A stretch of 32,000 bases of DNA from Candidatus Saccharimonadota bacterium (GCA_965227835.1 OZ245768.1:540001-572000), one strand, 5' to 3'. Shown: positions 11,443 through 32,000, numbered from the stretch's first letter. Program-made: numbers and translations. The notes: a model not told the origin generated them from the sequence alone.

Positions 11443-11955
11443 TTACCTCCTCTGATCATAAAGTGTAATTAATTCCTTTATATCAGCAATTAATGCAGGT
11501 CTATTATCAAGATAGTCATTAAATTTGAAACTATTTTCTAAATTTTCTTTTATAAATTTTCAAAATTTTGAATCTTCTAAAAATATATTTTTCTTATAAT
11601 CCTTACCGTTATCCTGAAAATGAGGCTTATCTGCTTTCCAAAGATCATAGCCCCAATCAATACTATATTTCTTTGCAACTTCAGCTATTTCTTTCCAACT
11701 ATAAATATCTTTTGGATAAAGTTCTTTTCATTTAAAAGCTATATCAATTGCTAATCACTGAGTATGATTAGATTTTAAAGTCCAAGTTACTTTTCTTCAC
11801 TTCCTAGTTCTTCAAAGAGAATATAAATAATTTTGTCTTTTTTGTGACCTATAACTTTCAGTAATAAATATTTTATCTCAAACTTCTTTTAAAAACAGTT
11901 CTACTTTTTTCCTGAATCTAGGATGTAATTTATCTAGTCATCTATATGTTTTCAT
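11443..11955 (-). CDS. Peptidase M15 family (VanY / L-Ala-D-Glu peptidase-like) phage endolysin (170 aa)
   Basis: ATG at 11955 and TAA at 11443-11445, 513 nt. Motifs: 'LHPRFRKKVELF', 'ITESYRSQKRQNYLYSLGRTRKGRKVTWTLKSNHTQGLAIDIAF' and 'YSIDWGYDLWKADKPHFQ'. Confidence 0.8.
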
Positions 11956-11973
11956 ATTAATTTGATGTTAATT

Positions 11974-12309
11974 TTATTTCATAAATTCTTTAGCATAACC
12001 TCTTTTAATTAATTCTTCATTAAGATTAATTCAATCAATAAATATTTCTCATAGCCATCTTCAATATTTACCTTTTTTATCTTTATAGGATTTTAAAATA
12101 ACCTTTTTTCATAGAATCATTTTTCTTACAAAATCTCTTACAATTCTTCATTGCTCTTTTTCTTCTCATCTTAGTTCAGGAGTATCTATTCCATATAATC
12201 TAATGGTTTGATCTTTCCATATATGATTAAATCATAAATCAATATTTATAGTTACTGTATCTCAATCATAAACCTTTATAACTTCTGCAGAATAAATATA
12301 TTTTTCCAT
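11974..12309 (-). CDS. Staphylococcal-nuclease (SNase/thermonuclease)-like nuclease (111 aa)
   Basis: Sequence 'VYDGDTVTINIDLGFN...IRLYGIDTPELRGEEKEQGRIVRDFV...KDKKGKYGRWLGEIFIDGINLNEELIKRGYAKEF', 336 nt. Confidence 0.75.
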
Positions 12310-12310
12310 A

Positions 12311-12691
12311 TTATTTTTTTATAAAATAAAATTCTTTTCAATATTTACATAAAAGAAAAAAACAAATAAACTTGATAGAAAAACGATGAGAAAATTTAGC
12401 CCAATGTAGAAGCTTATATATCTTACTAGCAAACTTATAATTTGATTTATAAAAGCCTTTTCTAAAACGAAAATCAATATCATGCTCTACACAAATCATT
12501 CTTATATCTTCATATAATTTTTCTGATTTTTTCTTATCAAATCAAGGAATAATTTCTAAATTATCTTTCAAAATTTTATCAAAACTTATTCCTCATTTTC
12601 ATCAACAACCATTAACTATTTCTCAATAAAATAAAGCTCCTAGCTCTTGCTTAGTAAGACTATATTCTAAAATTTTCTCTATACTTCTCAT
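12311..12691 (-). CDS. Hypothetical protein (126 aa)
   Basis: ATG at 12691 and TAA at 12311-12313, 381 nt, open under code 25. It abuts its neighbours with 1-2 nt gaps. Confidence 0.55.
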
Positions 12692-12692
12692 A

Positions 12693-12905
12693 TTATTTTG
12701 TAAAAGATTCTAAAATTTTCTCTCAAAAAATTGATAAAATACTAAGTCATCACATAGCTAGATAAATTCTTTTATTTATAGACTTAATATCAGCAGAGTG
12801 ATTTGTTACATCTTTTTCAAGTCTATTTACTCTTCAGTTAGTTTTTGTAGTTTGAATTAGTATTTTTTCTAATTTTTCAAAAATTAAATCATTATGATTT
12901 CACAT
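12693..12905 (-). CDS. Small hypothetical protein (70 aa) with a C-terminal hydrophobic segment; weak holin candidate
   Basis: ATG at 12905 and TAA at 12693-12695. 'IYLAMGGLSILSIFG' lies near the C-terminus. Position is in the lysis/accessory cluster. Confidence 0.45.
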
Positions 12906-12907
12906 AT

Positions 12908-13150
12908 TTAAGTATTGTTAATCGTTAAAATTCTATTAAGCACCTCAGTTAAAATATTATTTACTACAGTTATCTGTTCTTCAGTTAAATTTGTGGTTCA
13001 TTCATTTAAAAGAGATTGTATTTGTTCATCTACAGCACCCTTAGCTATAAAATAAATCATATCTTTATTTACTTGTATAAATTCAAGTAATTCATCCTTA
13101 GTCATAAGAAATACAGGACTTGTATCTGCTCCTCAAATATCTACTCACAT
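12908..13150 (-). CDS. Hypothetical protein (80 aa)
   Basis: ATG at 13150 and TAA at 12908-12910, 243 nt, open under code 25. Confidence 0.5.
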
Positions 13151-13157
13151 ATTTTTA

Positions 13158-13415
13158 TTAATTACCAACTAAAATTTCTAAAGTACCACTCCCTTTTACT
13201 TCTATTGGGAATACATTTATTTTTTTACCACTTCAAGACTTAATCTTATTTCTTCTAAGTCTGAATTCAGCTTGTCATTCTCATCATCTATAATCAATAT
13301 TACTACTTGTTAACATTGAATAAGATGAATACCATACCTTATTTCATTTTCAATCAGTTATCACTGGTCTTTCCCATTCTCAAGACATGGTATGTTTATA
13401 AGTTGTTTCAATCAT
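13158..13415 (-). CDS. Hypothetical protein (85 aa)
   Basis: ATG at 13415 and TAA at 13158-13160, 258 nt, open under code 25. Confidence 0.5.
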
Positions 13416-13430
13416 TGTTTAGAAAATTAA

Positions 13431-13844
13431 CTATAAATTTTTAATCTTTTTTATTTCTTCTCTCTTTATTTTCTCAGCATGTATATAGATCTGAGAATAT
13501 TCTGAAGCTTTACTCATTATCTTTTCAGCTAACTCTAGAGTTGTTTCTCATTCTATAACAAGAGATTCTAAAAGTTCAGAAGTACCTCATGCTATTACTT
13601 TTTCTGACTCTTCTATTTTCGCTTTCCAAGTATCAATCTCAGCTTGAGAATATCAGGCTGAAAATTGATTTATTCTATCTTGAAACTGTTTATTTATTAT
13701 TCATATTTTATACTGTTTAATTTCATCTGTTAACACTTCAGGTTCTTCTAAAACTAGCTTACTTTCTTCATTTATATATGCTTTGTATCACATATCTATT
13801 AATCTCTTTTGCTCTTTTGTTAGAGTGTCAAAATTCAATTCCAT
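13431..13844 (-). CDS. Hypothetical coiled-coil protein (137 aa) immediately downstream of the fibre gene
   Basis: ATG at 13844 and TAG at 13431-13433, 414 nt. The ATG lies 3 nt after the fibre stop ('AGA TAA AA ATG'). Confidence 0.55.
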
Positions 13845-13846
13845 TT

Positions 13847-16063
13847 TTATCTGATTATTACATTAAAAGTACCAGCGGTTCAAGCTGTTCAATTTGTTCA
13901 AGCACTTCAAGGCTGTGGACTATATGATCCTGAAACAGTTCATCAAGCACCTCATGATCATCAAGCACCTCAACTACTTAATAAGTTATAGTTCGCACTA
14001 TCTAATCCACAGATAATAGCTCAACCTCCACCTCATCATCATCCTCATCAACCTCATCATCCTCAACCTCAACCTGCACCAGAATTTCATCATTTTCATC
14101 AACTTCAACCACTTGCTCATCTAATATCAATAGTTCAACTTCCTTTTATTTCTCAGGCTTTGATTATGATATTTCATCAGTTATTACCTAATTCTCATCA
14201 TGCTCATCAACCTCAACCTGCACCATTACTACATCAACCACTTCATCAAGCTGAAGTTCAACCTGAATTTTGAGTATATGTTCAGTTCCAATTAGCATTT
14301 CATCATGGATTTCAATAAGCATCTCATCAAGAATTACTACATGAACCATATCATCATAAACCTCATGGAAATCAACCAGCACCACCTGAACCTCAGCTTT
14401 GTGAATCAGCAGCACCTCAACCTCATCCTCAACCATACCCTCAAGGATCTCATGCTCATCAAGAAGCTCAAGCTAAGTATCAGTTTATACTATGACTACC
14501 TCAATTTCATCAAGCACCACCTGATCATCAATTTCATGGTGTTAAAGTAGATCAATTGAATAAAACAATATTTCAATTATTTCAGAGTCATACTACATTT
14601 ATAGTTCATTCAATATTACAAATCCTACTACAATTTAGCTCTAAAACTCAATCACTACCTGTTACTTGTAAGGTAGCTCAAGAAGCCACAGTAATACTTG
14701 AATAGTTATATATCCCAAATGCTAAATTATATGTTCATGATAAAACTTCTAGATCTCAATCTCATCAATTTCAATAAAAAAGATCTATTCATAAAGCACT
14801 GGAATCAAATGAGATTTCAGTTTCACTTATAGCTCTGAAATCATTTCAAGTTGTTAGGTTTCAGGTAGAAATATCATAGGTATAGTAGTTTCAAGTTACT
14901 AATCCTGTTTGGTGTTTATCATATCAGGTATTAACTTTCTTAAATTCTCATGCATTTCAATCAGCCTGAAGTATTCAAATAAAATTAGTTCATCAAGGAA
15001 TAATAAGTTTATATCATGGTATTTTTAAATACATATCTCAGCTTGCTCATTGCCAAGATATTCAATCATAAAGTAATGCTTGTCATATAAAATCTCAATT
15101 TGATATAGTTCTTCATATTTCATATCTATTAACATCTGAATAAGTTCATGTTCTTTTTACTACTATGTGATATAAAACTTCATTATCTAAATTACAAGCA
15201 GTAGAAAATGTAAAAGCTTTCTCAGTTAATGTTCAATTAAGTTCGGTATAATTGATTGTATTTGATGTTCAATTTGTAACTACAGTTCAACTAGGAACTC
15301 AAGCATTATCAGTTTGTATTTCTATATAAATTCAATCATCAGGACTTCAAACTGTTTTAAACATTAAATTAATAGTATCTATAGCTCATTGTCAGTATAT
15401 TTTTTGTCATACATAAGGTCTAGAATTACTACCAAAATACATATTATCATCATGATCAAGTTGTGAATAATCAACCAAACTCATTGCTTTTCAAACAGTA
15501 GTATTTTGACCTAGCATATAATTTAAACTTGCACTATTAACTTCAGCTTGTAATCAAGTAATATTACTTCAATCAAGAGCTGGAAGTTTTCAGTTTTCAT
15601 CTGTTTTTACTAATTGATTCACTCAATTAAAAATATTTCACATCTTTGTTACTGATGGATTTTTTAGATCTATAAATACTCTTTCATCTGTAATTACTCA
15701 AGAATCTATTGAAGCTAGTTTTATAAAATTACTAGTAGGATAACTACCAGCTGTTTTTATTTCTCAAATTCAGGTTCAACTTGAATTATTACTGATTCCA
15801 TCATCTACATTTGCTTGATTTATTTCTATAAAAACTTTTTTAGTTCAAGTTGTATCAATAACTACATCAGCTGTATTTTGAAATAATACAGGGAAAGTTT
15901 CTGAATCTCTAGTCACATCAATAAATCAGTAACCTGCTGTTACTTTTCAAGATTGCACTTCTAATCATTCAACTACTCAGGAACTAGCAAGTGATTTAAA
16001 AATTTTTGCTAGGTCATAGTCTTGGTTTATATTTTCTCAGTTTAATAAAGCTACTCTTTGCAT
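13847..16063 (-). CDS. Glycine-rich tail fibre / receptor-binding-type protein (738 aa). The C-terminal third is mostly Gly, and most of those Gly codons are TGA.
   Basis: I translated every codon from 13847 to 16069. There is no TAA/TAG between TAG 16067-16069 and TAA 13847-13849, and the first ATG is at 16063. The C-terminus contains 'GGSGGAGGNGG...GGYGGGGGGAADSQSGGSGGAGG...' and an 18-residue poly-Gly (14021-14074). Track ORF 14188..14436 is an off-frame artefact. Confidence 0.8.
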
Positions 16064-16083
16064 TAACTAGATATAAAAAAATA

Positions 16084-16128
16084 ACTGTAAAAATATTACA
16101 GTCATCTTTTTTCCCCTCAAGGTCTTTT
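16084..16128 (-). promoter_or_regulatory. Repeated intergenic element, copy 1: box AAAAGACCTTGAGGGGAA (16111-16128) plus a 7-bp hairpin (16084-16102) and T-run. It lies upstream of the fibre gene.
   Basis: The box overlaps the TAA of the upstream gene. The box end is 48 nt from ATG 16063. The spacing TTGAGG-N17-AATATT places the hexamer at the hairpin apex. Confidence 0.6.
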
Positions 16129-17155
16129 ATATCTCAAGGTTCTTGGTTCTATTTTTTAAATCTTGGATTGTTTCTATTAAATTTAAAGTCTTTATATTTC
16201 ATTTACTCAGCTTTATTTTTACTTTATTTAATTCTCATGATCTGAATTCTTTTTCTATTATTTTTAAATGAGAATCAAACTGCATAATATCATTTCAAGC
16301 ATCAATAAAAACTTTTACAGTATCTCATAAGTTTGCTACAAAAAAATCATAACTTAAAGGGGTAATTTCAAGTTCCCTTATGGAATCTTTTCTATCAGAT
16401 AACAGACTATCTTTATCTCATGAAATAAAATACTTTTCTTGTCTTCAAAACTCATTAATACTTGGCAAATCTTCACTGTTTCAGGTATCTTTTGATATTA
16501 CTGCATTACTAATATTTTCACTATCATATTCAAGCTTTGCTGTATCTATAGTTCTACTTCATGGGAAGTTTATATCATAAGAAAACTCTATAAAATTGGT
16601 TCAACTTGTTTTATCTTCTCATATGGAATTTAAAAAATATAAAATATTATTTCTTATTTCAAACTCATATCAATTCAAGGCTAGATCTTTTAAAATATCA
16701 AAAAATGTTTGTCATTTTTTATAGGTTTTAGTTACCTGATCTAGTATATCTGAATTCAATGTTATTCCAGTATCATATCTAGAATTTATTACATCTAGTA
16801 CATCTATTAATATAGATTTAATCTGAGTATTTGTATATGATTTATCAGTGTATAAAATCTTATTTTTTAGTAAAAATATCTTATCATTTAAAATTACTTT
16901 TGTTTTACTCAAATCAGCTTCTACTCCTCTTATAATTCCATCAAATATTAATTTTTCACTATTATTTTCTACCTTGTATATTAAAACTTCATTAAATTCT
17001 TTAAAATTATTATATGAGTTAGATTTATGAGTATTTGATACTTCAAAGCTAGCACTAGAAATATCATTTAATTTTTGTCTTACTTCTAGTTTATTTACCT
17101 CAAATATCTGAGTTTTTTTATTTCACTCATGATCATTTACATAAATTATAAACAT
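16127..17155 (-). CDS. Phage tail structural protein (Tal / prophage-tail N-terminal-domain-like), 342 aa
   Basis: ATG at 17155 overlaps the upstream stop (TAATG). In frame with track ORF 16712..16912, 1029 nt. N-terminus reads 'MFIIYVNDHEGNKKTQIFEVNKLEVRQKLNDISSASFEV'. Position is after Dit and before the fibre. Confidence 0.55.
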
Positions 17156-18027
17156 TATAAAAGTGAATTACGGAAATAAATATTTATTAAGAAATCATTA
17201 AATGGTATATTACCATCTTTATCCTCTATAAGCAGTTTTGTAGTTTCTAAAATTCTAATCCACATACTTCAAGCAATCCTGTTTGATAGAATATTTTCTC
17301 AATTTTTGGTTACTGTATAATTTTCTGAATCTATAACTATCTTATCTCAAGCTACTGCATCTATGTCTAGTCAGAAATATGTATTTTTTGTTAGATCTCT
17401 TATCATTAATGGTTTATTAATATCTCCACTTGCTGTTATTTCTATACGAGCTGGAGTATCTATATTTCAAGTAGTCGTACATTCTATAATGTTATCTATA
17501 TCACTAAATGGATTTGATAATTTATAAGAGAGTTTAAATCCTCAATAATTTCACTCAAGTGAGGTATTTAATATTTCATTTAAGCTCTTATATACTGGCT
17601 CTTTGGTACTTTCTAGAACTACTCTCCACTTCCAATAACTTCAAACAAAAGATTCATCTCACTCTACAATTTCAAGAGGTTCTTTTATTTTTACTTTCAA
17701 AGTCCACTCATTATCATACATATCTTTGATATATAATTCTTTTTCTTCTAGACTCACTAGACTTCATTGCAGTGCAAATATTTTTTGTAAATACTCGATA
17801 GAGTTTTGATCTTCTAAAGGATTTCAAATTCTATCACTGATTCACTCTAGAGTTATTATTCTTATCCTTGCATAAGTAGGACTTACATTCCTCCCATGTA
17901 TTCAATCTATATTTTCTGAATCATCACTTACTGTTAATTTTCTCCAATCCTTAAAAGTATAAATAATTCATGATTCATTATCTTTTAAAATATCTTCTCA
18001 GTTTAATTTTGCGATTTTAAAATCCAT
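17155..18027 (-). CDS. Distal tail protein (Dit, siphovirus tail component-like), 290 aa
   Basis: ATG at 18027 and TAA at 17155-17157, 873 nt. It lies immediately downstream of the tape measure gene. 'NIDTPARIEITASGDINKPLMIRDLTKNTYFGLDIDAVAGDKIVIDSENYTV' is typical of this family. Confidence 0.6.
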
Positions 18028-18036: not shown

Positions 18037-20937
18037 TTACATTCTAAATTTTAGCTTATCAAAGAATAGTTCTAAATCTATGCTATTTGCTACATTAATA
18101 TTTCATACATCTACCTTTTTTGAGTAATCATTTTGCACCGATCTTCCTTGTCTTATAAGTTCAAGTTCAGGAATTATATTTGGCATTTTTTGTATCATTT
18201 CTTGATTTAATACATATTCTCATTTATGCACTACTCATGCTACTTCATGCTTTGCTCAATCTCATGTATAACCTCACTCAGCAAATCAAGCAGAACTACT
18301 ATTTCTAAGTGCATTTAATCTTCTTTGAGCTGAAATAGCACTATTTACTTGAGATATAAGACTTTTATAAGATGTAGATAAACTTGCTACATTTTTATTC
18401 AATATAGATGTAGTCTTATTTGATAATAAAATAGTCGCTTTATTAATTTCTATTTGCAGTTCAATAGCTTCATCTTTTTGTCTTGTAAGAGCTTCTTTTT
18501 CTCTAGCTAGTTTAAGTATAACTTCTTGCTCCTCCTCAGATAGCCTTAAAAATCTTTCATCTTTTATGATAGTATCTATTTCTTTTTCAGTTATTCTTTT
18601 CTTTTCAGCAAAAAACTCATAAAATTGTTGTTTTCTTTCTAATGCTTCCTTTTCTGCATTCAACTCATTTTCTGCATCTATTTCTTTTTGGTTAGACTCG
18701 GATATTATTCTTTGTTTCTCTTTTTCCTGATCTATTAATATTTTTCATATTTCTGAAGCTTCATCATATTTTCTAAGTCTATCTAATACTTTCTGATCTA
18801 CTATTTCTTGAGCCTGAAGTTCTTCTTTTATCAGAGCATTTAACTCCTTTTGTAAAGCTATTTTTTCTTCAGCACTTTCAGTATCCTCTTTGATTTGCAA
18901 TTGAAGTTCTTGCTTTTCTTTTTCTATTTCAAGTAATCTTTCAGCTATTTTTTCCTGAGCTGAGTTATTATTTTCTCCAAGTCTTTCTTCTCTCTCTTGT
19001 TTAATAAGTTTAATGGTTTCCTCATATTTCTTTTTATTTTTATCTAAAGCATTATTTACTTTTCTGAGTCATATTTCAATTTCATCATTATATTTTTTGG
19101 TATTCTTTGCTAAGCTTTCACTTAATTTCTCAGATTCTTTTATTTTAGCATTATAATCTTTATAGCTATCTTCTAAGTCTTTCATATTATCTTTGATTTC
19201 TTGTGTTGCACCAGCTCATGCTTTTCACATATCTTTAGCTTTTCCTCAAACTTTTTCAAAGCTAGATCAAAGTCCATCAATGGTAGTATTTATTTTATCA
19301 AATACTCAGGTACTACTTTTACCTGTATCAGCTATATCTGTTTCATAGGCATCAATATTTTCTAGCATTCTATCAAATGCCTTAGAATTATTATTTTTGA
19401 TCTTATCCCATGAATCAGTCCAAGCTTTTTTTGTGTTTTCTAATCATTTACCATTTTTAAGTACTAACTCTTCCATTTCAGTATTTACTTCCTTTATTTG
19501 AGCTATGGTATTTCTACCTAGTAATTCTAAAAGTATATTTATCTTATCTATTGCTGAATTTATAATTCCTATTACAAAGTTAACTGATTTTTTACCTGCT
19601 AGCTGAACGATATTTAAGGCAGATCAGAAAAAATTACCAAGTCATGTTCCAAGTGTTTTTATAGCTCAGAAAATACTTCATAAAACTGTATTTATAACAA
19701 TATAAATAGCCTGAAAGCCATTTGATATTGCCATTGCTAAAAACTTAAATAATTTGAAATTATCTTGAACTTGTTTTTTATTTTCTCAGGTTAATATCTG
19801 GAATGCATCGGTTATTATTTCAAATACACTTGTAAAAATCCCTGCTATTGCTTTTCATATATTGATTACATTTGTTGCTATATCACTTCAAAAATCAATA
19901 ATAGAAGCCATATTATTTTGCAAAAAATTGTTTATAGTTCCTATAATTCACTTTAAAGTATCTGATATATTAAGTCACATCTTTGATCCTGCTATCTCTA
20001 CATTATCTACCAAATTACTCCACATACCTGTTAGAGTTTTAGCTTGTTTTTCCATACTTCAGGCAAATTTTTCATTTAATCCTGTAAGTATAGCATTTAC
20101 AGCTGTAGCTGAATCAATTCCTTGATTTCATAAATCTCAAAGCTGTGCCTTAGTAAGTCATAATTGCTCTTCCAAAACTTTAAAAATTGGCAAACCTCTC
20201 TCAGCCATTTGTAGTACCTCTTCAGTAGATAGTTTTCACTTAGCTTCTATTTGTCATAATGCTAGAATAACTCAGTTTAAATCATCTTGTCATCTACCTA
20301 CTGCACTTATTGAATCTCATAAAACTTTTACAGTAGCAAGAGCTTTTTCTCACTCAAATCAAAATCATATAAGTTGTTGTATTGATTTTGTTAAACCTAG
20401 TTTATTAAATGGAGTTTGAGATGCTAACTCATCTATATCTTGTAGCATCTGAAGTGCTTTTTGCTCACTTCAAAGCAAAGTTTCAAAACTTATTTTTGCT
20501 TGCTCTACTTCAGCTCCTAGTTTTGATATTCACTTTATAAAATTTCAAATAGCATAAACACTAAATGCTCATGCTATAGCTCATCAAATACCTTTAAAAA
20601 ATCATCATAGTTTTGATGTTTTATTTGTTACTTTGCCAAGTTCTTTTTCTGTTTTCTTTACTTCTTTTTGTAATTCTTTAAATCTCTTACTTCATATCTT
20701 AGTATCATCAAGTTCATTGTTTAAATTCTTTAGTTTAGAGTTTAATCATCATATAGTTTTCGTAGTTTTTTCTGATTCAGATTTTATTTCTTTTAATCAT
20801 TTTTTTCATGAGCTCCCTAACTCTTTTTCAATAGTATCTCATGCTTTTTGAAATTCATTTTTTATTTTTAAGGTAGAATTCTTTATACTATTTTCATCTA
20901 CTGATAATCAAACTCTTAGTTCTCATAGGTTAGACAT
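18037..20937 (-). CDS. Tail tape measure protein (TP901-type core), 966 aa
   Basis: ATG at 20937 and TAA at 18037-18039, 2901 nt, in frame with track ORF 18286..18663. Core sequence reads 'LASQTPFNKLGLTKSIQQLIGFGFEGEKALATVKVLGDSISAVGRGQDDLNGVILALGQIEAKGKLSTEEVLQMAERGLPIF', followed by TM-like segments and a long coiled coil. Confidence 0.9.
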
Positions 20938-21382
20938 TTTTCTTTATATTATTTTTTAAAGCAGTTAGTTTTTTCTTTGGATTTTTTCTATCTTTGTCAT
21001 ATTTTTCTTCTCAAGCTATAACTTTGATATCCTCTAGTAAATCATTGAATACTTTTAAAGGTGTAGCCATTGTTTGTCAGTAAGAATTACCAAAAAATTT
21101 CATAAAAAATCAGATCTTTATATGGAAATCTTTAAGAGGTTTTTCTTGTTTCTTTTTGGTATTTAGTAAGTTATCCAAGTCCTCAGATTCAATCTCAAAT
21201 AATTTTTGTATAAGCTGTTTCAATTGCTTTTCATCAAGTACAGGAATAGTAGGATTAAATTCTAGGAATATCTCTTCTATAAACTGTTCTATATCTGATA
21301 AAGCTAGGAAATATCCTCATACAGTCAGTTCTCAGACCCTATAGTCTTTATTTCAGTATTTCACTTTTATTTTTCTTCTCAT
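20930..21382 (-). CDS. Putative tail assembly chaperone (150 aa)
   Basis: ATG at 21382. The stop TAA at 20930-20932 overlaps the tape-measure ATG. N-terminus reads 'KYGNKDYRVGELTVGGYFLALSDIEQFIEEIF'. The call rests on position between the major tail and tape measure genes. Confidence 0.55.
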
Positions 21383-21391
21383 AGGCAATAA

Positions 21392-21448
21392 AAAAGATTT
21401 AATCTATAATTTAGACTAAATCTTTTAGTGTTCCTCTCAAGGTCTTTT
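21392..21448 (-). promoter_or_regulatory. Repeated element, copy 2: box AAAAGACCTTGAGAGGAA (21431-21448) plus a 10-bp hairpin (21392-21426)
   Basis: The box starts 3 nt after the upstream TAA. The box end is 49 nt from ATG 21382. TTGAGA-N17-AGTCTA places the hexamer in the hairpin loop. Confidence 0.6.
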
Positions 21449-21451
21449 ATT

Positions 21452-22555: not shown

Positions 22556-22966
22556 TTAGAATTTCTGATCTTTAAATACAAATTTAAAAGTAAGAGGTTT
22601 ACGAAATAAATTCTTTTCAGGATTAGACATATCAGGTCATACATTTACAAGTTGTGACTTTACTCCATCATCTTTTGATCTATTAAATAATCAAACTACT
22701 AGATCCTTTATTTCTTCAAACTCTTCCATATTTGTTGCCCAAACATCTATTTGAAAGGAATCTTTTCTTATTCATAGATTATTTGTACTTCATCATACAT
22801 GACTATAGCTTATAAAAGGTCTATCAGTTCCTTTTATACTTTCAAGATCTCTACATATAACATTTTCAGGTCATCAAATTTTTTGTATTAAATTTACATA
22901 ATTTGTGAGTCTATCATATATGTATTTTCTTATATCTATAAATCATAATTCACTATGTTCTATCAT
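22556..22966 (-). CDS. Tail completion / head-tail joining protein (DUF3168-like), 136 aa
   Basis: ATG at 22966 and TAA at 22556-22558, 411 nt. Contains 'RPFISYSHV...FQIDVWATNMEEFEEIKDLV'. Confidence 0.5.
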
Positions 22967-23406
22967 GAGTATTTTTTTAATAATTTACTAAAGTTACCTT
23001 TTAATATTTGAGTAAGCTCTTTTTCATTATCATTAAGTCATTGTCTTAAATAACTTCTTTCTTCTATATCATCAGTTCAGAACTCTAAGGCTCTTCAATA
23101 TTCCTCAGTTATTCACTGGTTTACTCCAACAACATATCTTCATTCTCAAATTTTCTCCATTCAAATACTTCTTTTCAAGTTTCATGTAACTCACTCATAC
23201 CAATGACCATCTATTTGTACTGGTTTATAATGACTACTTCTCTCAGGAGCTTTTCAATCTTTTCTATCAATATTATTTTTCGGTAATCTATCTTTATCTC
23301 TCGGAGTTATTTCTCTTACTTTGGAAACAAGAATATTTGATGTAATCAAGACTGATTCATCTATACTTCTTTTTAACACCTGAGTATTCAAACTAAATTC
23401 AGCCAT
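22960..23406 (-). CDS. HK97 gp10-like head-tail protein (148 aa)
   Basis: ATG at 23406. TAG at 22960-22962 overlaps the next ATG. Contains 'KVREITPRDKDRLP...VVGVNQGITEEYGRALEFGT'. Confidence 0.5.
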
Positions 23407-23410
23407 AGTA

Positions 23411-23761
23411 TTAGTTTATAAATCTTAAAATACTTTTATTATGGTCGTGTTTCTTATTCATATAGACCCTTTCTACAAATATAACTTCAAAAGTATTTGT
23501 TTCTTGCAAGACTTTATCTCATTTTTTAGGCAGAGTATCAGTTTTACAATATAATTCGTATTCCTTAGATGTAAAACCTAATTGTCATGCACTATCAAGA
23601 CTATCATCATTTATGGATTTTCATCTCTCTAAAATTATTCACTTAAATAAAATCTGAGTCGAAGAGTCTTTCACTTTCTCTCAATACTTATTCAGACCTT
23701 TAGTAATACTTTCCAGAGTAATATCTTGAAAGGCAAAGCCAAAATTATCTATAAAAGCCAT
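23411..23761 (-). CDS. Putative head closure / head-tail adaptor protein (116 aa)
   Basis: ATG at 23761 and TAA at 23411-23413, 351 nt. The call rests on size and position between the connector and gp10-like genes. Confidence 0.45.
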
Positions 23762-23768
23762 AAATTTT

Positions 23769-24362
23769 TTAAATTATTCATTTAAAAGATTTATACTTTG
23801 AAATTATCATATCGAAGTTTTGTTTAATAGCTATATTAAATCTATCTTTAATGTTAGATTCTCTCTCAGACTCTCAAAAGTAAGTTACAGAAAGGCTTCC
23901 GAGCTTCTGAGTTTTTATATTTTTATTCTCTAAACTCTCGCTATTATCTCCACTTATTCATAAATCGATTGATAAATTAATGCATAAATCTAAACTCATT
24001 TTCTCTATGTCAGAAGGAACTGTATCAAATCAAATATTATACTTAATTTCTATATTTTTCTTTCATTTTCTAGTCTTTTCTTCTAAATATAGTATATAAT
24101 TATCTATATAATCTACAGTGTAGTTATAAGACTCATTTTTAAGCTTTATATATTCAATATTATTAGCTTTGTGATCTAAGTATATCTTATTACTTCAAGT
24201 TCCATCTACTCTTGCAATTATATCTTGTTTTCATAAGTTATATCATATTTTGGAGTCTATCATATTTGTAGCTTGCTCTATAATTAAAAGAAGCTTTGAA
24301 TCACTACTATTATCAGTAATTCAAAGCTTATCTTTTAAGCTACTTAAAGTAGTATAATTCAT
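23769..24362 (-). CDS. gp6-like head-tail connector protein (197 aa)
   Basis: ATG at 24362 and TAA at 23769-23771, 594 nt. The N-terminus 'LSSLKDKLGITDNSSDSKLLLIIEQATNMI' is typical of this family. Confidence 0.55.
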
Positions 24363-24368
24363 TGTTTG

Positions 24369-24779
24369 TTATATTAATCAATTATCTGTAGCTAAATTTT
24401 TAAGTTCCTCATCTGTTTTTCATTCTAGTTCTGATTCATCTAATATTCACTCATTAACTAATAGTTCTCAGTAATTTGTAGTATCTGAATCTGTATTATC
24501 AGTTATTTTTCCTGATTCAAGTTCATCTACTAACTTATTCAGTTCAGCAACTTTCAATTTTTTATCATACTCTACTCAAGCATGATCTAGAATTTCTCTA
24601 CATTCTTTTCAAGTTCTCTGATTATCATTTTTTACTATATTTTTCTTTTCAATCTTTTCTTTTACTACTGAAAATCAAGCTTGTAAGTAATCATCTAGTT
24701 TTGATTTATCTATATCTAAGATTTGTCATTTCTTAGCTCAGTTATAGATCCTATTTTTATTATTTATAACTCTAACCAT
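24369..24779 (-). CDS. Hypothetical acidic protein (136 aa) downstream of the capsid gene
   Basis: ATG at 24779 and TAA at 24369-24371, 411 nt, open under code 25. Confidence 0.5.
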
Positions 24780-24798: not shown

Positions 24799-26010
24799 TT
24801 AAGTTGTTTTATTATTTTTAACAAGCACTGTAGCTTCAGGATTTTCTATTAAAATATCTAGTTTCATTTTATACCAGAAATTATATCCATCAGGTGCAAC
24901 TCTTTCAGGTTCAAGTTTTAAGTCAGTTTGGATTCAGATAATTACATTTTTAGGATTCGTTCCTATAATATCAGCACCATCTAAGATTACTTTATCAACT
25001 TTCATTCCAGCTTCTATATCATAGATTAATGGTGTAGTTGTTGTAATAGAATTTGCATCTATAGAAGCTACTATATAAGTCATTTGTGTAGCATTACCAT
25101 AATCTACAGTTATACTATCTCCAGCACTTATACTTCATGTTAAATCAGTATCTATAAATATACCTAAAGTTCATGCATTTTGTGGATTCGTGATATTAGC
25201 TGAAACTCATGTTTTTACAGGATTTTCATTTATCATCAATGATACTTCATTGATTTTAGTTCCTGCAATTCTATTCTTATTAGTTTCTCCATCTCATCTA
25301 TTACCATTTGGATCATTATATAATTCATCTAAATCTATTTGAGTATCAGGATCATGGAAGAATTCTATTTCTTTTTTATATTTATTTGCTAAAGCCTTTT
25401 TAGCTTGAACATATTTTTTTCTTGTAATATCTCTACCTGTAAACACATTCGTATCTGATCCATCTAGTACATTACCATCTTTTTCAATTTGGTATTTAAT
25501 ACCATCAAACATATTTAATATTCAATTATCAGCTGATGGAGTATCTACTTTTCTACCATATATTGCAGTTTCTACTAATTCATTAGCAATCTTTTTAGCA
25601 ATAATTCTTTTCATATGTTCTTCAAAGCTTTTTCACTCGATGTTATCATCAATTTCATCATCTGATAAGTAAAAGAATCACTCTACTTTCTTTGAGCTTA
25701 AGAAAATTGAATCAGTTTGAACTTTATATCATGCTTTACCTGTTTGACCATGAGTTCTTTTACCAGCACCTCAAGGCATTAAAAATTTTCAAGGAGCAAT
25801 TAATTTTGCAATCTCTTTTGTTGGTCATGTCATTGTGATCACTCTGAATTTTTTCAGTAATCAATCTGATTCATCTTTTACATAATCAATAAATTGTTTA
25901 GCTTCATCATTTTTCCAATGAAAATTTACAGGAACTCAGTTTGAATCTAAAGTGAAAGCCTTTTTTAGATCCTCTGTTTTTTGAGTTCTTTTCTTTAGTT
26001 GTATAGGCAT
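24799..26010 (-). CDS. Major capsid protein (HK97-fold type), 403 aa
   Basis: ATG at 26010 and TAA at 24799-24801, 1212 nt, in frame with track ORF 25294..25512. The call rests on position after the scaffold gene, on size, and on the C-terminal 'PDGYNFWYKMKLDILIENPEA'. Confidence 0.75.
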
Positions 26011-26033
26011 TTTTTACTAAATTATAATATAAA

Positions 26034-26450
26034 TTAATCTATTTTTGAGATCCTTTGATCTTTTAAAACTTTTTCTATACTTTCAACTCTATCAATTGTA
26101 GAATCAAGAGCATCAGATACTGTTTTATCATCTTCTTCTTTTTCTTTTTTAATTTTTTCTATATCTCCTGTTAATTCTTTAAGTTGTCACATAAAATTTG
26201 TTACATCATCAGAAGATAAATACATATCCACATATTTTTTGATAGCTTCTTTTCAATCATCTGACTCAAAAAACTTTTTAATATCTTTTTCGGAAGTAGT
26301 TTCAGTTTCATCTTCTACCTCTTTAGAAAGTTTAGCTTTCATTTCAGAAGCCTCTTCAAATTTCTTAATTGCTTCCTCTGATTTATCTTCTTTTAATAGA
26401 GATATACCATCAGAAAAAACTCCAAAAAATTTTTCTAGTAGTTCTTTCAT
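26034..26450 (-). CDS. Scaffolding protein (138 aa, acidic coiled coil)
   Basis: ATG at 26450 (the Met internal to track ORF 26253..26513, whose upstream extension crosses the repeat box). Continues through TGA to TAA 26034-26036, 417 nt. Confidence 0.65.
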
Positions 26451-26494
26451 ATAAATAAATTTAAAATATAAACAATTACAGACTAGTTTCTTTA

Positions 26495-26674
26495 TTATTC
26501 CCCTCAAGGTCATTTCAAATTGGATAGAATCTTATTAAGTCTTTCTTTGTTTTTATTTTTCTTTACTGTTTTAAATAATGCGAATTTATTCTCAGCTTGC
26601 TCTACTGCAGGTGTATTATCTTTTGTTACTAAACTAATTCCATCTACAAACACATTTTTTATATCTCTAGGCAT
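26495..26674 (-). CDS. Small ORF (59 aa) resembling the N-terminal 'ISLV..AN...FAI.K' segment of XkdF-type proteins
   Basis: ATG at 26674. Sequence 'MPRDIKNVFVDGISLVTKDNTPAVEQAENKFALFKTVKK...LKGPGGE', with TAA at 26495-26497, 180 nt. Confidence 0.45.
26498..26515 (-). promoter_or_regulatory. Repeated element, copy 4: box AAATGACCTTGAGGGGAA. The downstream hairpin is weak.
   Basis: The box end is 48 nt from ATG 26450. The spacing is TTGAGG-N17-AGTCTG. The box lies inside the last codons of the 59-aa ORF because no TAA/TAG precedes it. Confidence 0.55.
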
Positions 26675-26684
26675 CTTATTTTTA

Positions 26685-27053
26685 TTAAACTATAAAATAT
26701 CACTCCATTGATACTCAAACAAAATCTCAGGCTTTTACACTTTTGTATAATTCATTATCTAAGAACTTAACTCATACATACCAACTTCATTTTTTCACAA
26801 TAGTTTCTCAAACTATTATGTCATTTGGAGCTATAAAATTTTCTACAAATTGATATTTTGTTTTTTCTATTTCAGTATTTTCTTCATGATCCACATTTAA
26901 AAATTTGTTTTGCATATTAGCACCAAAATCATGAGCTGTTTTTATAATCTCTTCAGAAGTTATTACATCTCAGTTTCTATCTTCAATATCAGGTGTTAAA
27001 ATACAAAAACTCACAGTTTTATGGATATCATCTGTTTTTAGTAGTCTTATCAT
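26685..27053 (-). CDS. XkdF-like putative phage serine protease domain protein (122 aa)
   Basis: ATG at 27053 and TAA at 26685-26687, 369 nt. Sequence 'ILTPDIEDRNGDVITSEEIIKTAHDFGANMQNKFLNVDHEEN...ENFIAPNDIIVGETIVKKGSWYVGVKFLDNELYKSVKAGDFVGVSMEG'. Confidence 0.65.
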
Positions 27054-27076
27054 TGCAGATTTTTAGAAAATAAAAA

Positions 27077-27124
27077 AACACTACTTTTAGTTTAGTAGTG
27101 TTTTGATTCTCTTTAAGGTCTTTT
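27077..27124 (-). promoter_or_regulatory. Repeated element, copy 5 (most divergent): box AAAAGACCTTAAAGAGAA (27107-27124) plus a 9-bp hairpin (27077-27102) and a 7-nt T-run
   Basis: The box overlaps the TAA of the MuF-like gene. The box end is 54 nt from ATG 27053. TTAAAG-N17-AAACTA places the hexamer in the hairpin loop. Confidence 0.6.
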
Positions 27125-27890
27125 AGTCTATCACTCAACTATCAGGATTAACAATACTATAATCAGTATAACATCTACAGTTAAATCAATGAGGTGCATG
27201 ATCTGTATTAGTTCATGGAAATAGTTTATTTTTAGCTATCCATCAAGCATTTTCATTTTCTATATGACTTTCTCTAGCATTACTATCTCATTGAGTAATA
27301 CTTCTTTTATATCAAGTTACTCCAAAATTTTTAGTATATTCATCATGCTGTTTTCTTGATCAGTATTCGTATGCATTTCATACTTCCATTACTGCTATTA
27401 AGCTTGATCTATATGTTGAATACTTTAAAAACTTATCATCAATCTTTTTAGCAATTTCCCCCAGAGTATCTCATTTAGATATTCAATACTCTATAATTTT
27501 TCAAATCTCTTCTCTAGTTGTTTCATCTATTTCAGATATCATTTCTCAGGCTCTTTTTTCTGCATACTCTAATTGATATTCATTACTGATTCAGATATCT
27601 AAACTAAGTCATATATTTTCTAATTCTAACTTACTTTTTTGCTCTTGCTCTAATTGTCAGAGTAAAACTATAGCTGAAAGTTTTTCTATTAATTCTTTAT
27701 TAATTTTTGGATCATTAGCTTTTTTAATATCCTTGTTATCTTTTAGTTCATCAATGTATTTTTTAGCTTCATTTTGAAAGTATTTATTGAAATAGTCTAT
27801 AAAATCATAGAAGTAATTCATAAACTCTTTTGATTTTACTTTTTCAAAATCATCTATTATTTTTTTTACTAATTTTATTTGTTTTTTCAT
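27123..27890 (-). CDS. Minor head / head morphogenesis protein (SPP1 gp7 / Mu F-like), 255 aa
   Basis: Track ORF 27657..27890 continues through TGA. C-terminus reads 'ITQGDSNARESHIENENAGWIAKNKLFPGTNTDHAPHGFNCRCY'. TAA at 27123-27125, 768 nt. Confidence 0.8.
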
Positions 27891-29146
27891 ATTCAGATTT
27901 TATTTAAAAATTTTCACCATTTTGAGTAACTTTTTTCTAGACTTTTTTCTACTTCATCTAATTCCATATCTTCTTTATTGTCAAATTCACTTCATCATGA
28001 TGTTAAAAGTTCATCTCATCAAGGTAATGGATCAAGTCAAAGTGATTCTCTTTGCTCATTAGCAGTAGTAATACCTGCTTTCTTGTATCAAACTGCTATT
28101 TTCATTTCATCTACTCAATTTTTCAAATCTACTTTATTAAAATCAATCTCGTTTATTTCCTCAATAGATATTTCTTTTAAAACTATATCATCTTCCTTTG
28201 CTTTTTTCCAAGATAAAAGTTGAGCTTTTAGTTGTCTTAGTATTTTTCACTGCAAGGGAATAATTATATCAGCATATAAACTCTCTAGAGCTACATTACT
28301 CGTAGCTTTATTTGAGTTTTTCGAGGATAACAAATCAAAAGGAATATTAGTTGATATAGCTATATCTTCTTTTAATTCTCTTTTAAGTGCTATAAATTTA
28401 TCAGGATCTATTCTTGTTGATAGATCTATTTTTCCTATTTTTCAAGTTAGAAATAAAGTATTATGAGAATTATCTATTCCTGATATTTTATCTTTTATCA
28501 TCTCTTCAATCTTTTCTACTTGCTCAGTTGTTAGATTTCAAAGTTCATCATATAGAATATTTGGTTCTATATTTCATCACTTAAAAAAGTTCTTATAGTA
28601 TTTAGTTATAAAAGCTAAAAGTACTACTTCATCAATACAAGAATGGAATAAACTATCTCAATAATGTTTATCTCCAAGTGATCATCTTTTGAAAAATAAC
28701 ACTTCATCATTGGAAAAAGGAACTTTTTTAATTCACTTCTTAGACCTTTGATAATATGCTACTTTTTTGTTGTTTTTAGAAGACTTTCTGATTGTAGGAG
28801 TCAGAATTGTATCAAATTCTAGTAAACTCTCTTTATTCCCATTTTTTAGTCTTTCTGAGAAAGAATTTCAAAAAGTAAGTAGGTTTTGAGCTATAATATC
28901 AATATCCAAGTTATCTAGCAGGTTATCTAGCTCCTCATTATCTGTTCTTATAAATCAGCTATCTACTTTTGATGAAATTTTCTTAATAATTCAAGATATA
29001 ATAGAACTATTATCATAAGCATATAATAATTCATCAAATCATACTTCAGGTTCTATTACTCAATCATTAGAGCTGAATAGTTCATCAGATCTATCATCTA
29101 TCTGTTTTGATACTCACGTTTTAAATAATTTTATTTTATCTGACAT
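27875..29146 (-). CDS. Portal protein (423 aa)
   Basis: ATG at 29146 and TAA at 27875-27877, 1272 nt. It overlaps the MuF-like start by 16 nt. Contains 'YYQRSKKGIKKVPFSNDEVLFFKRGSLGDKHYGDSLFHSCIDEVVLLAFITKYYKNFFKGGNIEPNILY'. Position is between the terminase and head genes. Confidence 0.75.
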
Positions 29147-29164
29147 AATTTTTAGCAAAAAAAT

Positions 29165-29213
29165 AAAGACTAGATTTAGTATCTAATCTTTATCTTTCCC
29201 CTCAAGGTCTTTT
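29165..29213 (-). promoter_or_regulatory. Repeated element, copy 6: box AAAAGACCTTGAGGGGAA (29196-29213) plus an 11-bp hairpin with one mismatch (29165-29191) and T-run
   Basis: The box end is 50 nt from the portal ATG 29146. The spacing is TTGAGG-N17-ATACTA. The box lies inside the last 8 codons of the tandem-HTH ORF. Confidence 0.6.
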
Positions 29214-29690
29214 ATGAAGGTTTCTATTTAACTCAATTATATCATGCAGGCTTGCAACATACCATCTAATTTGGTTTCATTCAGGTTCTGAGAAACCATA
29301 TAATTTTAAAAGCTCTCTTAGATAATATGAATTAAACTTTGGTGCTACATCTCAAGCTTCTATCCTTGTAATCTCTCTTTCAGTTCACTTAATCATCTTT
29401 GCTACTTCTTTTTTTGATAGTTTAAGTTTCTCTCTTCTAGTTTTAAGTAAATTTCATAGTACACTTTCATCACTCTTTAACCATTTTTTCATATTTTCAC
29501 TATAAAATTTATCTTTTTTCAACTCGAAGAATTCATACAAGGTATCGAGAGTTTGAGCTGTATATTTTTTGTTTCTATGTCAGTTCTTAATTGAGTAAAT
29601 AGCCTTACATCATATTCAAGTTTCTTGTCTTAGCTTTTTCATATTATTTTTTTCAAGAAACTCTTTAATTCTTTGTTGTATTAAACTCAT
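29190..29690 (-). CDS. Tandem XRE-type HTH DNA-binding protein (166 aa) between the terminase and portal genes
   Basis: ATG at 29690 and TAA at 29190-29192, 501 nt. HTH 1 reads 'LRQETGIGCKAIYSIKNGHRN'. HTH 2 reads 'LKLSKKEVAKMIKGTEREITRIEAGDVAP', with TGA at the E-x-G glycine. Confidence 0.7.
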
Positions 29691-29700
29691 ATTACACAAA

Positions 29701-31176
29701 TTAAAAAGCTCTAATCTCTCATCAAGCAAATGGTGTAAAACTAAAAACCATACTATCTACCATATCATCATGTTCTCATCATGGGAAAGCAAGCAGTTGA
29801 TTTTCTAAACTTCAAACCTTTTTACTATCTGAACTAAATTTTATAAGTCATCTTTCAAATTCTCATTGGAATTCTCTAAGTCTTGTGACTTTATCTTTTT
29901 CTGAATTAATAACTATTACTGCTAATCATCTCTTTTTTAACATCCTAGCAAGAATAAGTCATCAGTTATTTTGCTCTATATAAATCAAAGAGCATTTGTA
30001 TTTGTTATACAGTTCTACCACACTATTACAGAATTTATCCTCATCTTTATCAGTTCACTCAAATGCTATTGATTCAAGTATATACTTGTGAATTTCTCAA
30101 GTGTATTTTTCTTGAGCTGTTATTGTTAATCACATTGCATCTGTTCAAGTTTTTTCTGAAAAAGCAGGATCTATTCAAAATACTATTTTATAACTCTTAG
30201 GTAGCTTATAAAAATACTTTATATCTGATCTTTTAATTATGCTTTGACCATTCTTGTAAGGGATTAAATTAAAGTTTTGATTATAAGCTATTAATCAATC
30301 TCTTCTTTTTGTCTGCAGAGAAATAAACTTATAAGCATCATCTCTGATGTTTTTATTTTTTTCTCTAGCTTCTTTATCAGTAGAAACGAATCTACTCCAA
30401 CTAATATTTCATTTGATCCTGATAGGTATCCAATAAATTTTAAAATCCTTGTTAGATTCAAAAAATTTCTTTAATCTTGGAATCCTACCATCTTCATTAA
30501 TAACATTTCATAGGAATATTTTTTGTGCAAACGAATTTAATCATCCAAATACTTCTCAAGTCAGGAATCTCATATCAGCTTCAATCAGCTCGGAGTTCTT
30601 AGTGTTTTTATTTGTATCTATATCATCAAATCATACTAAGTCAGGTCTATGAGTTCTTCCATCTCTTCATAAAAACTTCTTTCATCTAGGACTTTTTCAA
30701 ATACTCATTGCTTGAACCTTTATATTTCAATCTATCATAAATTCTCAGATTGTTTTCTTTGTTGGTTCATTTTGTTTTCTTCATTCAGGAGGAATGTATA
30801 AGTGTCAAAAGTCATGTATTAATAATTCATTTGTTTGAAGAATAACTATTATATCAAGTAGCATAGCTTTTGCTTGCTCTATCTCTGAGTTATAATGCAT
30901 TATATATCTTCTTTTCTTATATACGATACAATAAACATAATAGTAAGTTAAAAACATTGTTTTAGCACATTCTCTAAATCAAACAAAAAATATATTTATC
31001 ATATTTTGTAAGTCATCACAGTAGTCTTTATGAAACTGAGCAAGTGCATGACTAAACTCATTTGGGAAATAATACAGACAAAAAGATAGAAAATCTCATT
31101 TAAAATATTCTTTTCTCAAAAATGTTTTATCAATATTTGTAAAAAGATATTCTAGTAGTTCTCCATCTCTCTCCAT
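29701..31176 (-). CDS. terL: Terminase large subunit (491 aa)
   Basis: ATG at 31176 directly follows the TerS TAG. TAA at 29701-29703, 1476 nt. Motifs: 'FFVGFRECAKT' (P-loop region), 'RPDLVGFDDIDT' (Walker B), and the nuclease motifs 'FGIDPAFSEKTGTDAMGL' and 'AFPGGEHDDMVDSMVF'. Confidence 0.85.
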
Positions 31177-31668
31177 CTATAATAATTTATTATTTTTTAA
31201 TATTTGCTGATATTTTTGCTGATCCTCTTTATCGAGTATTGGTTTATCTCAATTATGGAATTGGAGTTTATTCATGAAGTCTTTATCCCTCATCATTAAC
31301 CACCATTTTGAATCAGCTGAATCTCAGGCTTTTATGTTCGCTCATATATTCAATCTAGCTTGCAGGGATATACTATCTTTAAGTATCCCTTTTTCCTCCA
31401 AAAATTCAGGATTTTCTTGCTGATATTGGTATAACTTACTAGTCGAAATTTGGCTAAAGTAACAGGCTTGCTCGTCTGTCATACCTACTGCAAAACACAG
31501 CTTTAATTTTTGGAGTGTCAGATCTGTCATAATCTTAGGTCTTCAGGCTCATATTTGCTTTTCTTTTTCTTCTTCTTTTGGTAGATCTTTTGATATTTGT
31601 TTTACAGTATTTTCTTTTTCTTTTATACTCAAATTTCAGACTTTTTTGTGGAATTTTTTCCTAGTCAT
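31177..31668 (-). CDS. terS: Terminase small subunit-like HTH protein (163 aa if started at ATG 31668; track ORF 31342..31530 is its middle)
   Basis: The frame is open from ATG 31668 (overlapping the methyltransferase stop, 'GATGACTAG') through 'GAGRPKIMTDLTLQKLKLCFAVGMTDEQACYFSQISTSKLYQYQQENPEF' and two TGA to TAG 31177-31179, 492 nt. The alternative start is ATG 31530. Confidence 0.7.
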
Positions 31669-32000
31669 CTAAAATTTTGTTAATATCTAAATTTCTATTT
31701 AAGCATGTAATTTCTTTTTTTCACTTTGTAACTTCATAGTATCTCTTGATAATAGTTTGAACGAAAACAGGATCTAACTCCATCATATAACAAGTTCTTT
31801 GTTTTTTCTCACTTGCTATAAGAGTTGATCCACTTCATCAAAATAAATCTAGGATATTATCTCAAATTTTACTAGAGTTATTCAAAGCATATTCTATTAG
31901 CTCCACTGGTTTTTGTGTAGGATGCACATATTCATTTACATTTGCTCTCTTCATACTCCATAGAGTAGTTCTTCATTCAGCTTCAGCATCTTTAGCTCTT
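31661..32000 (-). CDS. Phage DNA N4/N6 methyltransferase (PF01555-like), C-terminal part. The N-terminus lies beyond the window end.
   Basis: Sequence 'TLWSMKRANVNEYVHPTQKPVELIEYALNNSSKIGDNILDLFGGSGSTLIASEKKQRTCYMMELDPVFVQTIIKRY'. The two Gly of 'FGG' (31835-31840) are TGA TGA. TAG at 31661-31663. Confidence 0.85.

Follow-up and report, generated by a model that had tools for sequence, protein, structure and literature searches.

Positions 11439-32000 of a 32,000-nt stretch of DNA recorded as Candidatus Saccharimonadota bacterium (GCA_965227835.1 OZ245768.1:540001-572000; the whole stretch is called the window here) are best explained as the late, right-hand two thirds of a siphovirus-type temperate prophage that measures about 29-30 kb and is integrated into a Gracilibacteria chromosome. 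The probability assigned to this reading is roughly 0.85. The set of packaging, head, neck, tail and lysis genes is complete. It is intact when read in genetic code 25, and purifying selection acts on it.

At 23-31% GC, the window is AT-rich, and its GC skew is negative throughout. Open reading frames (ORFs) of at least 100 aa on the minus strand account for about 3 kb if TGA is a stop codon, versus 30.3 of the 32 kb (31 ORFs) if TGA is a sense codon. Reading TGA as sense, 37 genes were called (g01-g37, of which g01-g29 form the phage block, 11443-32000); all are on the minus strand, the biological reading direction being from 32000 to 1, and they contain 792 in-frame TGA codons. Intergenic spacing is tight: gaps range between -19 and +123 nt, and three overlaps are of the TAATG type. 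A reading made earlier from the sequence alone (the sequence-only reading) had described a late region written on one strand in code 25, and the 29 uninterrupted genes of the phage block bear this out.

Five proteins were translated with TGA as Gly and with TGA as Trp, and each version was scored against Pfam. The Gly translation outscores the Trp translation in five of five comparisons, by 8 to 153 bits: 742.6 versus 589.8 bits for ACR_tran, 153.6 versus 132.8 bits for the D12 methyltransferase, 75.3 versus 43.8 bits for Phage_portal, 35.3 versus 27.6 bits for Peptidase_M15_4, and 31.9 bits versus no match for Terminase_6C. TGA encodes both glycines of the FxGxG S-adenosylmethionine motif of g31 and is intermixed with GGN codons in the poly-Gly runs of g22, and in the terminase large subunit (TerL) the alignment columns at TGA positions show G, seldom W, in distant homologues. 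Judged from these alignments, TGA is decoded as Gly (code 25), not as Trp (code 4). TGA accounts for 71% of Gly codons in the phage block, 78% in the adjoining restriction-modification (R-M) cassette and 69% in the efflux genes of the host. Thus, the phage, R-M and host blocks are equally adapted to code 25, and with a TGA-Gly frequency equal to that of host genes, expression of the phage relies on the code-25 translation apparatus of the host. The sequence-only reading had placed the late region directly against efflux genes with the same recoding; the recoding is indeed shared (69% versus 71%), but a 5.9-kb R-M cassette lies between the two.

Hidden Markov model (HMM) searches of the code-25 translations against PHROGs, which the sequence-only reading had proposed as a check, and against Pfam match most of the structural genes (Table 1). 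Its labels were corroborated by HMM matches for the methyltransferase, the terminase small subunit (TerS), TerL, portal, MuF, XkdF, major capsid, neck, tape measure, Dit and M15 proteins; those for the scaffold, major tail protein, chaperone, Tal and fibre received no significant HMM match, and g04, g28 and g23-g27 were missing from its list. The assignment of g10 as the major capsid protein is based on its PHROG match together with a tblastn alignment (E 1e-8; 23% identity, covering 92% of g10) to proteins annotated as the major capsid protein in Streptomyces phages. The tape measure gene g19 matches 23 more PHROG families at E<=0.01, mostly tape-measure families. The truncated methyltransferase g01 is 85-88% identical to a 445-aa methyltransferase encoded upstream of TerS in three related phage loci (L002, L011, L012), from which a full length of about 445 aa is expected. 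Neither g08 nor g09 has a significant HMM match, and both are kept in relatives. No family of tail sheath proteins in PHROGs was matched by any of g11-g22, so the siphovirus-type call stands; with TerL, portal, capsid, a 966-aa tape measure protein and Dit present and no sheath matched, the gene content points to a tailed phage of the class Caudoviricetes with siphovirus morphotype. The hydrophobic segments of g26 and g27 make them holin candidates. Among GenBank phages, identity to TerL does not exceed 27%, the best matches being Helicobacter prophages and D3112/B3-like Pseudomonas phages.

Integration is indicated by two proteins of the window. Written with W for TGA, the products of g03 (TerL) and g36 (an efflux protein of the host flank) match P0171 and P0163 in the database byte for byte, and each of these two is recorded on one 1,489,121-bp contig (NCBI and ENA). 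Since a phage terminase and a host efflux protein are on the same contig of chromosome size, the element is integrated, as the sequence-only reading had supposed, and a free circular phage genome that carries the efflux genes is excluded. That a free phage genome or an assembly chimera was only seemingly joined to host DNA is very improbable. Related assemblies do break at the junctions (L091, which is ENA contig NODE_280976 of a 97%-identical strain, starts 5 nt before g35, and contig SRR32147206_4247 ends near the integrase), with nothing specific to this element; against a chimera, in addition to the shared contig, are the independent assembly of the phage-efflux junction from two sequencing runs (L095, L096) and the same codon usage on either side.

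There are 91 homologues of TerL, and every one with a named source is from 'Candidatus Gracilibacteria bacterium', as is the case for g36; the efflux operon g35-g37 is orthologous to chromosomal loci of non-lysogenic Gracilibacteria, and a syntenic prophage is located within a 740-kb Gracilibacteria contig. On the evidence of these homologues, the host is a member of the Gracilibacteria, in agreement with the Gracilibacteria-like host named in the sequence-only reading. Exact 70-mers of the window have no match in GTDB representative genomes, IMG/VR or JGI metagenomes, and a search of JGI metagenomes with g36 was uninformative, returning one locus only.

Close relatives of the prophage are found in IMG/VR. 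IMGVR_UViG_3300028416_001248 (c1248; 29,288 bp), as well as locus L011, is collinear with positions 11439-31999 at 91-94% nucleotide identity, and IMGVR_UViG_3300024243_001175 (c1175) is collinear with the same positions at 83-86%; these two contigs and IMGVR_UViG_3300024221_000828 all have the gene order of the window from methyltransferase to endolysin. In comparison with the window, the contigs have small indels; c1248 is without the SNase gene g28 and possesses an additional 130-aa ORF before the major tail gene. The ratio of nonsynonymous to synonymous substitution rates (dN/dS) between the window and c1248 is 0.13 over 25 genes; therefore, the late genes are under purifying selection and are not decaying. 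The highest value among the larger genes is that of the putative fibre gene g22 (0.61).

The temperate nature of the lineage is apparent from the left arms of these relatives. Upstream of TerL and on the opposite strand, they encode a large serine recombinase of 475-490 aa (Resolvase and Recombinase domains; 488 aa in the relatives collinear at 91-94%), followed in order by an ImmA/IrrE M78 peptidase, an XRE repressor, an AAA_24 ATPase, a PD-(D/E)XK nuclease and an HTH_36/DnaD-like protein; after these early genes come the methyltransferase, TerS and TerL. The module of recombinase, M78 peptidase and XRE repressor lies 7.3-8.8 kb upstream of TerL, and the recombinase module was present in each of the six relatives for which left-arm sequence was available (L011, L012, L014, L015, L016, L097). 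By synteny, a lysogeny module would be expected at about 38,500-40,000 in window coordinates. A distant relative with a TerL of 51% identity, found on a single 37.8-kb Logan contig (loci L095 and L097), extends from serine recombinase through M15 endolysin, and 185 nt past its endolysin are orthologues of g35, g36 and g37, followed by a copper ATPase; thus, the same neighbourhood of phage and host recurs in another lineage.

These relatives also bear on whether the late genes might belong to a domesticated particle, either a gene transfer agent or a tailocin. Only late genes are visible in the window, as would suit such a particle. A tailocin is excluded by the TerS, TerL, portal and capsid genes, and the close relatives carry integrase, repressor and replication genes at different bacterial attachment sites (attB) in different genomes, which indicates mobile behaviour and not a vertically inherited gene transfer agent. 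The likelihood of domestication is accordingly put at next to nothing.

Several points weigh against the prophage reading. The labels of scaffold, major tail protein, chaperone, Tal and fibre are putative, being assigned by position only. The integrase and repressor genes and both attachment sites of this prophage lie outside what the window shows, where no direct or inverted repeat marks the right attachment site (attR). When the integrase of the relatives was used as the query, no homologue on the 1,489,121-bp contig was found among the listed members of 20 serine-recombinase clusters, a negative that covers the representatives and up to 15 members per cluster and that an integrase of another type would escape. 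The left side is mosaic, for TerS shares only 64% identity with its counterpart in the closest relative, the methyltransferase end (88% aa) also diverging more than the rest, and the left arm of this prophage may possibly be deleted or different. The sequence-only reading had put the integrase and lysogeny arm beyond 32000; synteny agrees with this placement, while the integrase itself was not recovered from this genome among those cluster members.

The lack of an integrase match and the divergence of the left side would suit a defective (cryptic) remnant that has kept the late region, has lost or replaced the integrase and lysogeny arm, and no longer excises. Such a remnant is unlikely, given that all 29 late genes are intact with dN/dS of 0.13 and that every relative with enough DNA upstream of TerL has the recombinase module. 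An integrated temperate prophage with its left arm beyond the window remains the preferred reading.

Table 1. Features of the window, listed in the biological reading direction.
Gene or feature	Predicted product or content	Coordinates	Strand	Evidence
g01	C-terminal 112 aa of phage DNA N6/N4 methyltransferase, cut by window end	31661..31999	-	phrog_498, 3e-34
g02	Terminase small subunit (TerS)	31177..31668	-	phrog_4102, 8e-11
g03	Terminase large subunit (TerL)	29701..31176	-	phrog_38, 7e-65; Terminase_6C
g04	Double helix-turn-helix (HTH) regulator, 166 aa	29190..29690	-	phrog_8, 5e-9; other HTH families
g05	Portal protein	27875..29146	-	phrog_12, 4e-23; PF04860, 75.3 bits
g06	MuF-like head morphogenesis protein	27123..27890	-	phrog_2468, 6e-19
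g07	XkdF-like (Peptidase_S78_2), putative prohead protease domain	26685..27053	-	PF14550, 2.6e-21; phrog_3017, 1e-22
g08, g09	Small ORF (g08); acidic coiled-coil protein, putative scaffold (g09, 26034-26513)	26034..26674	-	Position only
g10	Major capsid protein	24799..26010	-	phrog_1623, 2e-34, full length
g11-g15	Neck module, including head-tail adaptor g12	22556..24779	-	g12: phrog_442, 5e-14
g14	Tail completion/Neck1	within 22556..24779	-	phrog_5, 2.5e-8
g15	Tail terminator	within 22556..24779	-	phrog_347, 3.5e-4
g16	Putative major tail protein	21715..22482	-	Position
g17, g18	Putative tail assembly chaperones	20930..21715	-	Position; no HMM match; kept in relatives
g19	Tape measure protein, 966 aa	18037..20937	-	phrog_9959, 3e-39
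g20	Distal tail protein Dit	17155..18027	-	phrog_33, 6e-10
g21	Putative Tal-like baseplate hub	16127..17155	-	Position after Dit; sub-threshold PF18994 (Prophage_tailD1), E 0.0027
g22	Putative tail fibre / receptor-binding protein	13847..16063	-	Position; Gly-rich C-terminal part, 120 TGA codons
g23-g27	Small late ORFs	12311..13844	-	Weak or no HMM matches
g28	SNase-like (thermonuclease) endonuclease	11974..12309	-	phrog_452, 2.5e-32; PF00565, 3e-14
g29	M15 (VanY/M15_4) endolysin	11443..11955	-	PF13539, 35.3 bits (cutoff 25); PHROG endolysin, 2e-21
R-M cassette	41-bp palindrome, C protein g30, D12 methyltransferase g31, N6_N4 methyltransferase g32, type II restriction endonuclease g33, g34	5503..11413	-	
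Palindrome	41 bp, near-perfect	11373-11413		
g34	675-aa protein	5503-7530	-	Weak HATPase_c only (E 0.0097; 'ITDNGVGF')
Host flank	Promoter region, g35, g36, g37 (cut by window end)	1..5493	-	Homologous to non-lysogen loci L092, L104, L105 from ~5493
g35	Small secreted Cys/His/Met-rich protein			
Hairpin	Resembles terminator, between g35 and g36	4908-4935		
g36	CusB/HlyD-like adaptor			HlyD
g37	CusA/CzcA RND pump			TIGR00914, 998 bits; ACR_tran

Both right ends that the sequence-only reading had offered as candidates proved to be true discontinuities. The endolysin gene g29 is the last with homology to related phages, and the homology stops at 11439-11441, which is 2-4 nt past the endolysin stop codon in the alignments with c1248 and c1175. 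Homology to the host core resumes within the g35 promoter region, near 5493, with a non-lysogen locus (L105, of which g37 is 95% identical) as the reference. At this site L105 has an AbiE toxin-antitoxin pair, and other non-lysogens have tRNA-Cys or unrelated genes; since the genes upstream of g35 differ among non-lysogens, the site is a variable hotspot.

The 5.9 kb from the last phage homology to the first host-core homology are taken up precisely by the R-M cassette. PADLOC identifies a control protein (Control_protein, 9e-12), two methyltransferases (MTase_II, 2e-138 and 1e-154) and a restriction endonuclease (REase_II, 1.7e-65). The palindrome lies ahead of g30, a control protein of 70 aa, which overlaps the start of the first methyltransferase gene (TAATG). 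This is the gene set of a complete type II R-M operon predicted to be controlled by its C protein. At the C-terminus of g34, a D...EFK motif like that of PD-(D/E)XK nucleases can be discerned by eye, and g34 is possibly a defence component of the GHKL-ATPase/nuclease kind that accompanies the R-M operon.

The cassette is either cargo at the right end of the phage or a separate island in the hotspot upstream of the efflux operon. If it is cargo, the prophage reaches to about 5500, and the R-M genes and g34 would serve lysogenic conversion or superinfection exclusion from a location between the endolysin and attR. Such an arrangement is conceivable at somewhat less than even odds. The cassette is on the same strand as the phage genes, begins 74 nt past the endolysin and has like TGA usage (78% of Gly codons), and host-core homology is found only from about 5493 onward; moreover, c1175 shares a 71-aa ORF with c1248 despite a different attB, and a type I R-M system then occupies the same relative position. 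The arguments for an island are that every related phage ceases to align 2-4 nt beyond the endolysin stop, that the lysogen L095 has no cassette in the 185 nt between its endolysin and its g35 orthologue, that non-lysogens hold other defence genes (AbiE) at the same position, and that IMG/VR has no close relatives of g33 and g34. Searches of GTDB representatives yielded none either.

Where the window has the R-M cassette, c1248 and c1175 have a Cys-rich ORF of 71-72 aa after the endolysin. In c1175 (L003:10747-20452, L109:18817-20923), this ORF, a predicted membrane protein of 71 aa held in common with c1248, is followed by the type I R-M genes (HsdM/S/R) and, beyond these, by nucleotidyltransferase-like, M48-like peptidase and ADP-ribosylglycohydrolase-like proteins, a block of defence type in the same position relative to the phage as the R-M cassette of the window. 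No conserved segment was detected between the DNA after the endolysin of c1175 and positions 4900-11500 of the window. Searches of PDB sequences with g10, g33 and g34 gave no match.

The flanking direct repeats for which the sequence-only reading had proposed a search were not found in the window, as is to be expected from a serine recombinase with a 2-bp crossover. A 15-nt direct match flanking the R-M cassette, TTGAYTTTTTTAAAA, was of borderline significance and was judged to be promoter-like low-complexity sequence. In a search for a 3' fragment of tRNA-Lys or tmRNA that could represent attR, only chance 12-mers turned up in the window and in loci L003 and L004, and the score of an inverted P-arm match to sequence on the integrase side did not exceed that of shuffled sequences. 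The window itself contains no tRNA and no Rfam family.

Among the relatives, the recombinase ORF reads into the 3' end of tRNA-Lys(UUU) by TruB in two contigs and into that of tmRNA in two others. Alignment of the four junction loci (L011:1216-1291, L016:116-191, L015:967-1432, L014:932-1395) distinguishes two phage sequence types, each present at both RNA genes, with the junction falling between CCACCA and TTTATGA. IMG/VR contigs of the c1248 and c1175 type are flanked by tRNA-Lys/TruB or tmRNA, and the efflux operon is not visible in them. The incomplete ORF with which c1175 ends looked like a second recombinase but was set aside, since it has no similarity to the integrase, and queries with g21, g25 and HsdM did not recover the right flank of a second tmRNA lysogen.

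On the host side of the junction, g35-g37 are probably a copper/silver resistance locus in a bacterium of the candidate phyla radiation (CPR), as judged from the genes for a copper P-type ATPase and a multicopper oxidase that come after their orthologues in relatives.

If this prophage resembles its relatives of 91-94% nucleotide identity, its left arm beyond 32000 would encode a large serine recombinase, an ImmA-type metalloprotease with an XRE repressor, and, for recombination and replication, an AAA_24 ATPase, a PD-(D/E)XK nuclease and a DnaD/HTH_36 protein. Insertion by the recombinase would be at a tRNA or tmRNA gene, immediately past its 3' CCA end, and the pair of ImmA and repressor would form a damage-inducible lysogeny switch of the ImmR/ImmA type. 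By general phage biology, the Gly-rich fibre would act as the receptor-binding protein, and release would proceed via the M15 peptidoglycan peptidase with small membrane proteins. A tape measure protein sets about 0.15 nm of tail per residue, and the 966 residues would correspond to a tail of about 145 nm.

Each of these modules has counterparts in known systems. The temperate siphoviruses phiC31, Bxb1 and TP901-1 integrate by large serine recombinases; like them, the relatives have a Resolvase and Recombinase protein of 475-490 aa at the end of the prophage and no long att repeats, but the relatives have their junction at the 3' CCA that ends tRNA-Lys or tmRNA, and such targets classically belong to tyrosine integrases. 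The ImmR/ImmA type of lysogeny switch is known from ICEBs1 and phi105-like elements. Similarly, in the relatives an M78 (IrrE/ImmA) peptidase with a HEXXH motif adjoins the XRE repressor, divergent from the early genes; here, in contrast, the switch genes are predicted from the sequences of relatives and not from the window. PvuII and Esp1396I are type II R-M systems controlled by C proteins. The cassette shares with them a 70-aa HTH control protein, a 41-bp palindrome ahead of it, and methyltransferases and a restriction endonuclease after it, but differs in having two classes of methyltransferase (D12 and N6_N4) before one restriction endonuclease, as in type IIS systems, and an additional 675-aa GHKL-like protein.

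Some late genes have features of their own. The regulator g04, situated between TerL and portal, is kept in the close relatives and in locus L001 and is absent from L097; a regulator such as this within a packaging module is unusual. Without any match in PHROGs or Pfam, g16 has a sole match among GenBank phages, gp21 of the archaeal Methanoculleus virus L4768/Blf4 (L108:6992-7792), with 29% identity across 99% of the length. In that virus gp21 is encoded two genes ahead of the tape measure, a position equivalent to that of g16. The product of g22, also without HMM match in PHROGs or Pfam, is 22% glycine, and its C-terminal region is rich in GGxGG, with a run of more than 16 Gly residues in which TGA and GGN are mixed. 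The SNase gene g28 stands just before the endolysin gene in the window and in c1175, not in c1248.

Usage of TGA also varies within the phage block. In g09, g10 and g16 combined, TGA represents 37% of Gly codons, versus 75% in the remaining genes of the phage block (Fisher p = 4e-9). Depletion of TGA-Gly in virion genes recurs in three of four relatives: L001 (20% versus 68%), L015 (48% versus 82%) and L014 (67% versus 86%). There is no such depletion in the scaffold, capsid and major tail genes of L097. It might be supposed that the R-M genes are phage cargo, that the recombinase targets the CCA end of tRNA-Lys or tmRNA, and that TGA-Gly avoidance reflects a translational cost or a regulatory use; that all three hold jointly is doubtful.

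Twelve prophages of Gracilibacteria and 15 of Absconditabacteria, all in code 25, have already been published (mBio 2023, PMC10746230). The present element is like them in its location in a Gracilibacteria genome and in its dense in-frame TGA codons, which make the ORFs readable only in code 25. The published prophages were recognised by portal, terminase, tail or integrase genes; the publication gives counts and genome diagrams, whereas the gene-by-gene annotation, attB usage and R-M neighbour come from the present analysis. With these prophages in print and near-identical relatives in IMG/VR, the sequence-only reading overrated the novelty of a phage of a code-25 CPR bacterium, and the element is a well-preserved new example of a kind of prophage already described.

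The value of the element is as a fully annotated, apparently functional temperate phage of an uncultivated code-25 CPR host, with a defined neighbourhood in the host genome and with close relatives in which the lysogeny module and the attachment sites can be seen. What goes beyond the known picture is secondary, namely that a serine recombinase of the relatives targets tRNA-Lys and tmRNA, that an R-M system stands at the end of the prophage, and that TGA-Gly is depleted in the capsid, tail-tube and scaffold genes. If the R-M genes were indeed cargo, a CPR phage would be arming its lysogen with a C-controlled type II system of two methylases. The prophage should be useful for questions of host range, recoding and the CPR cell wall, and its M15 endolysin implies a peptidoglycan target.

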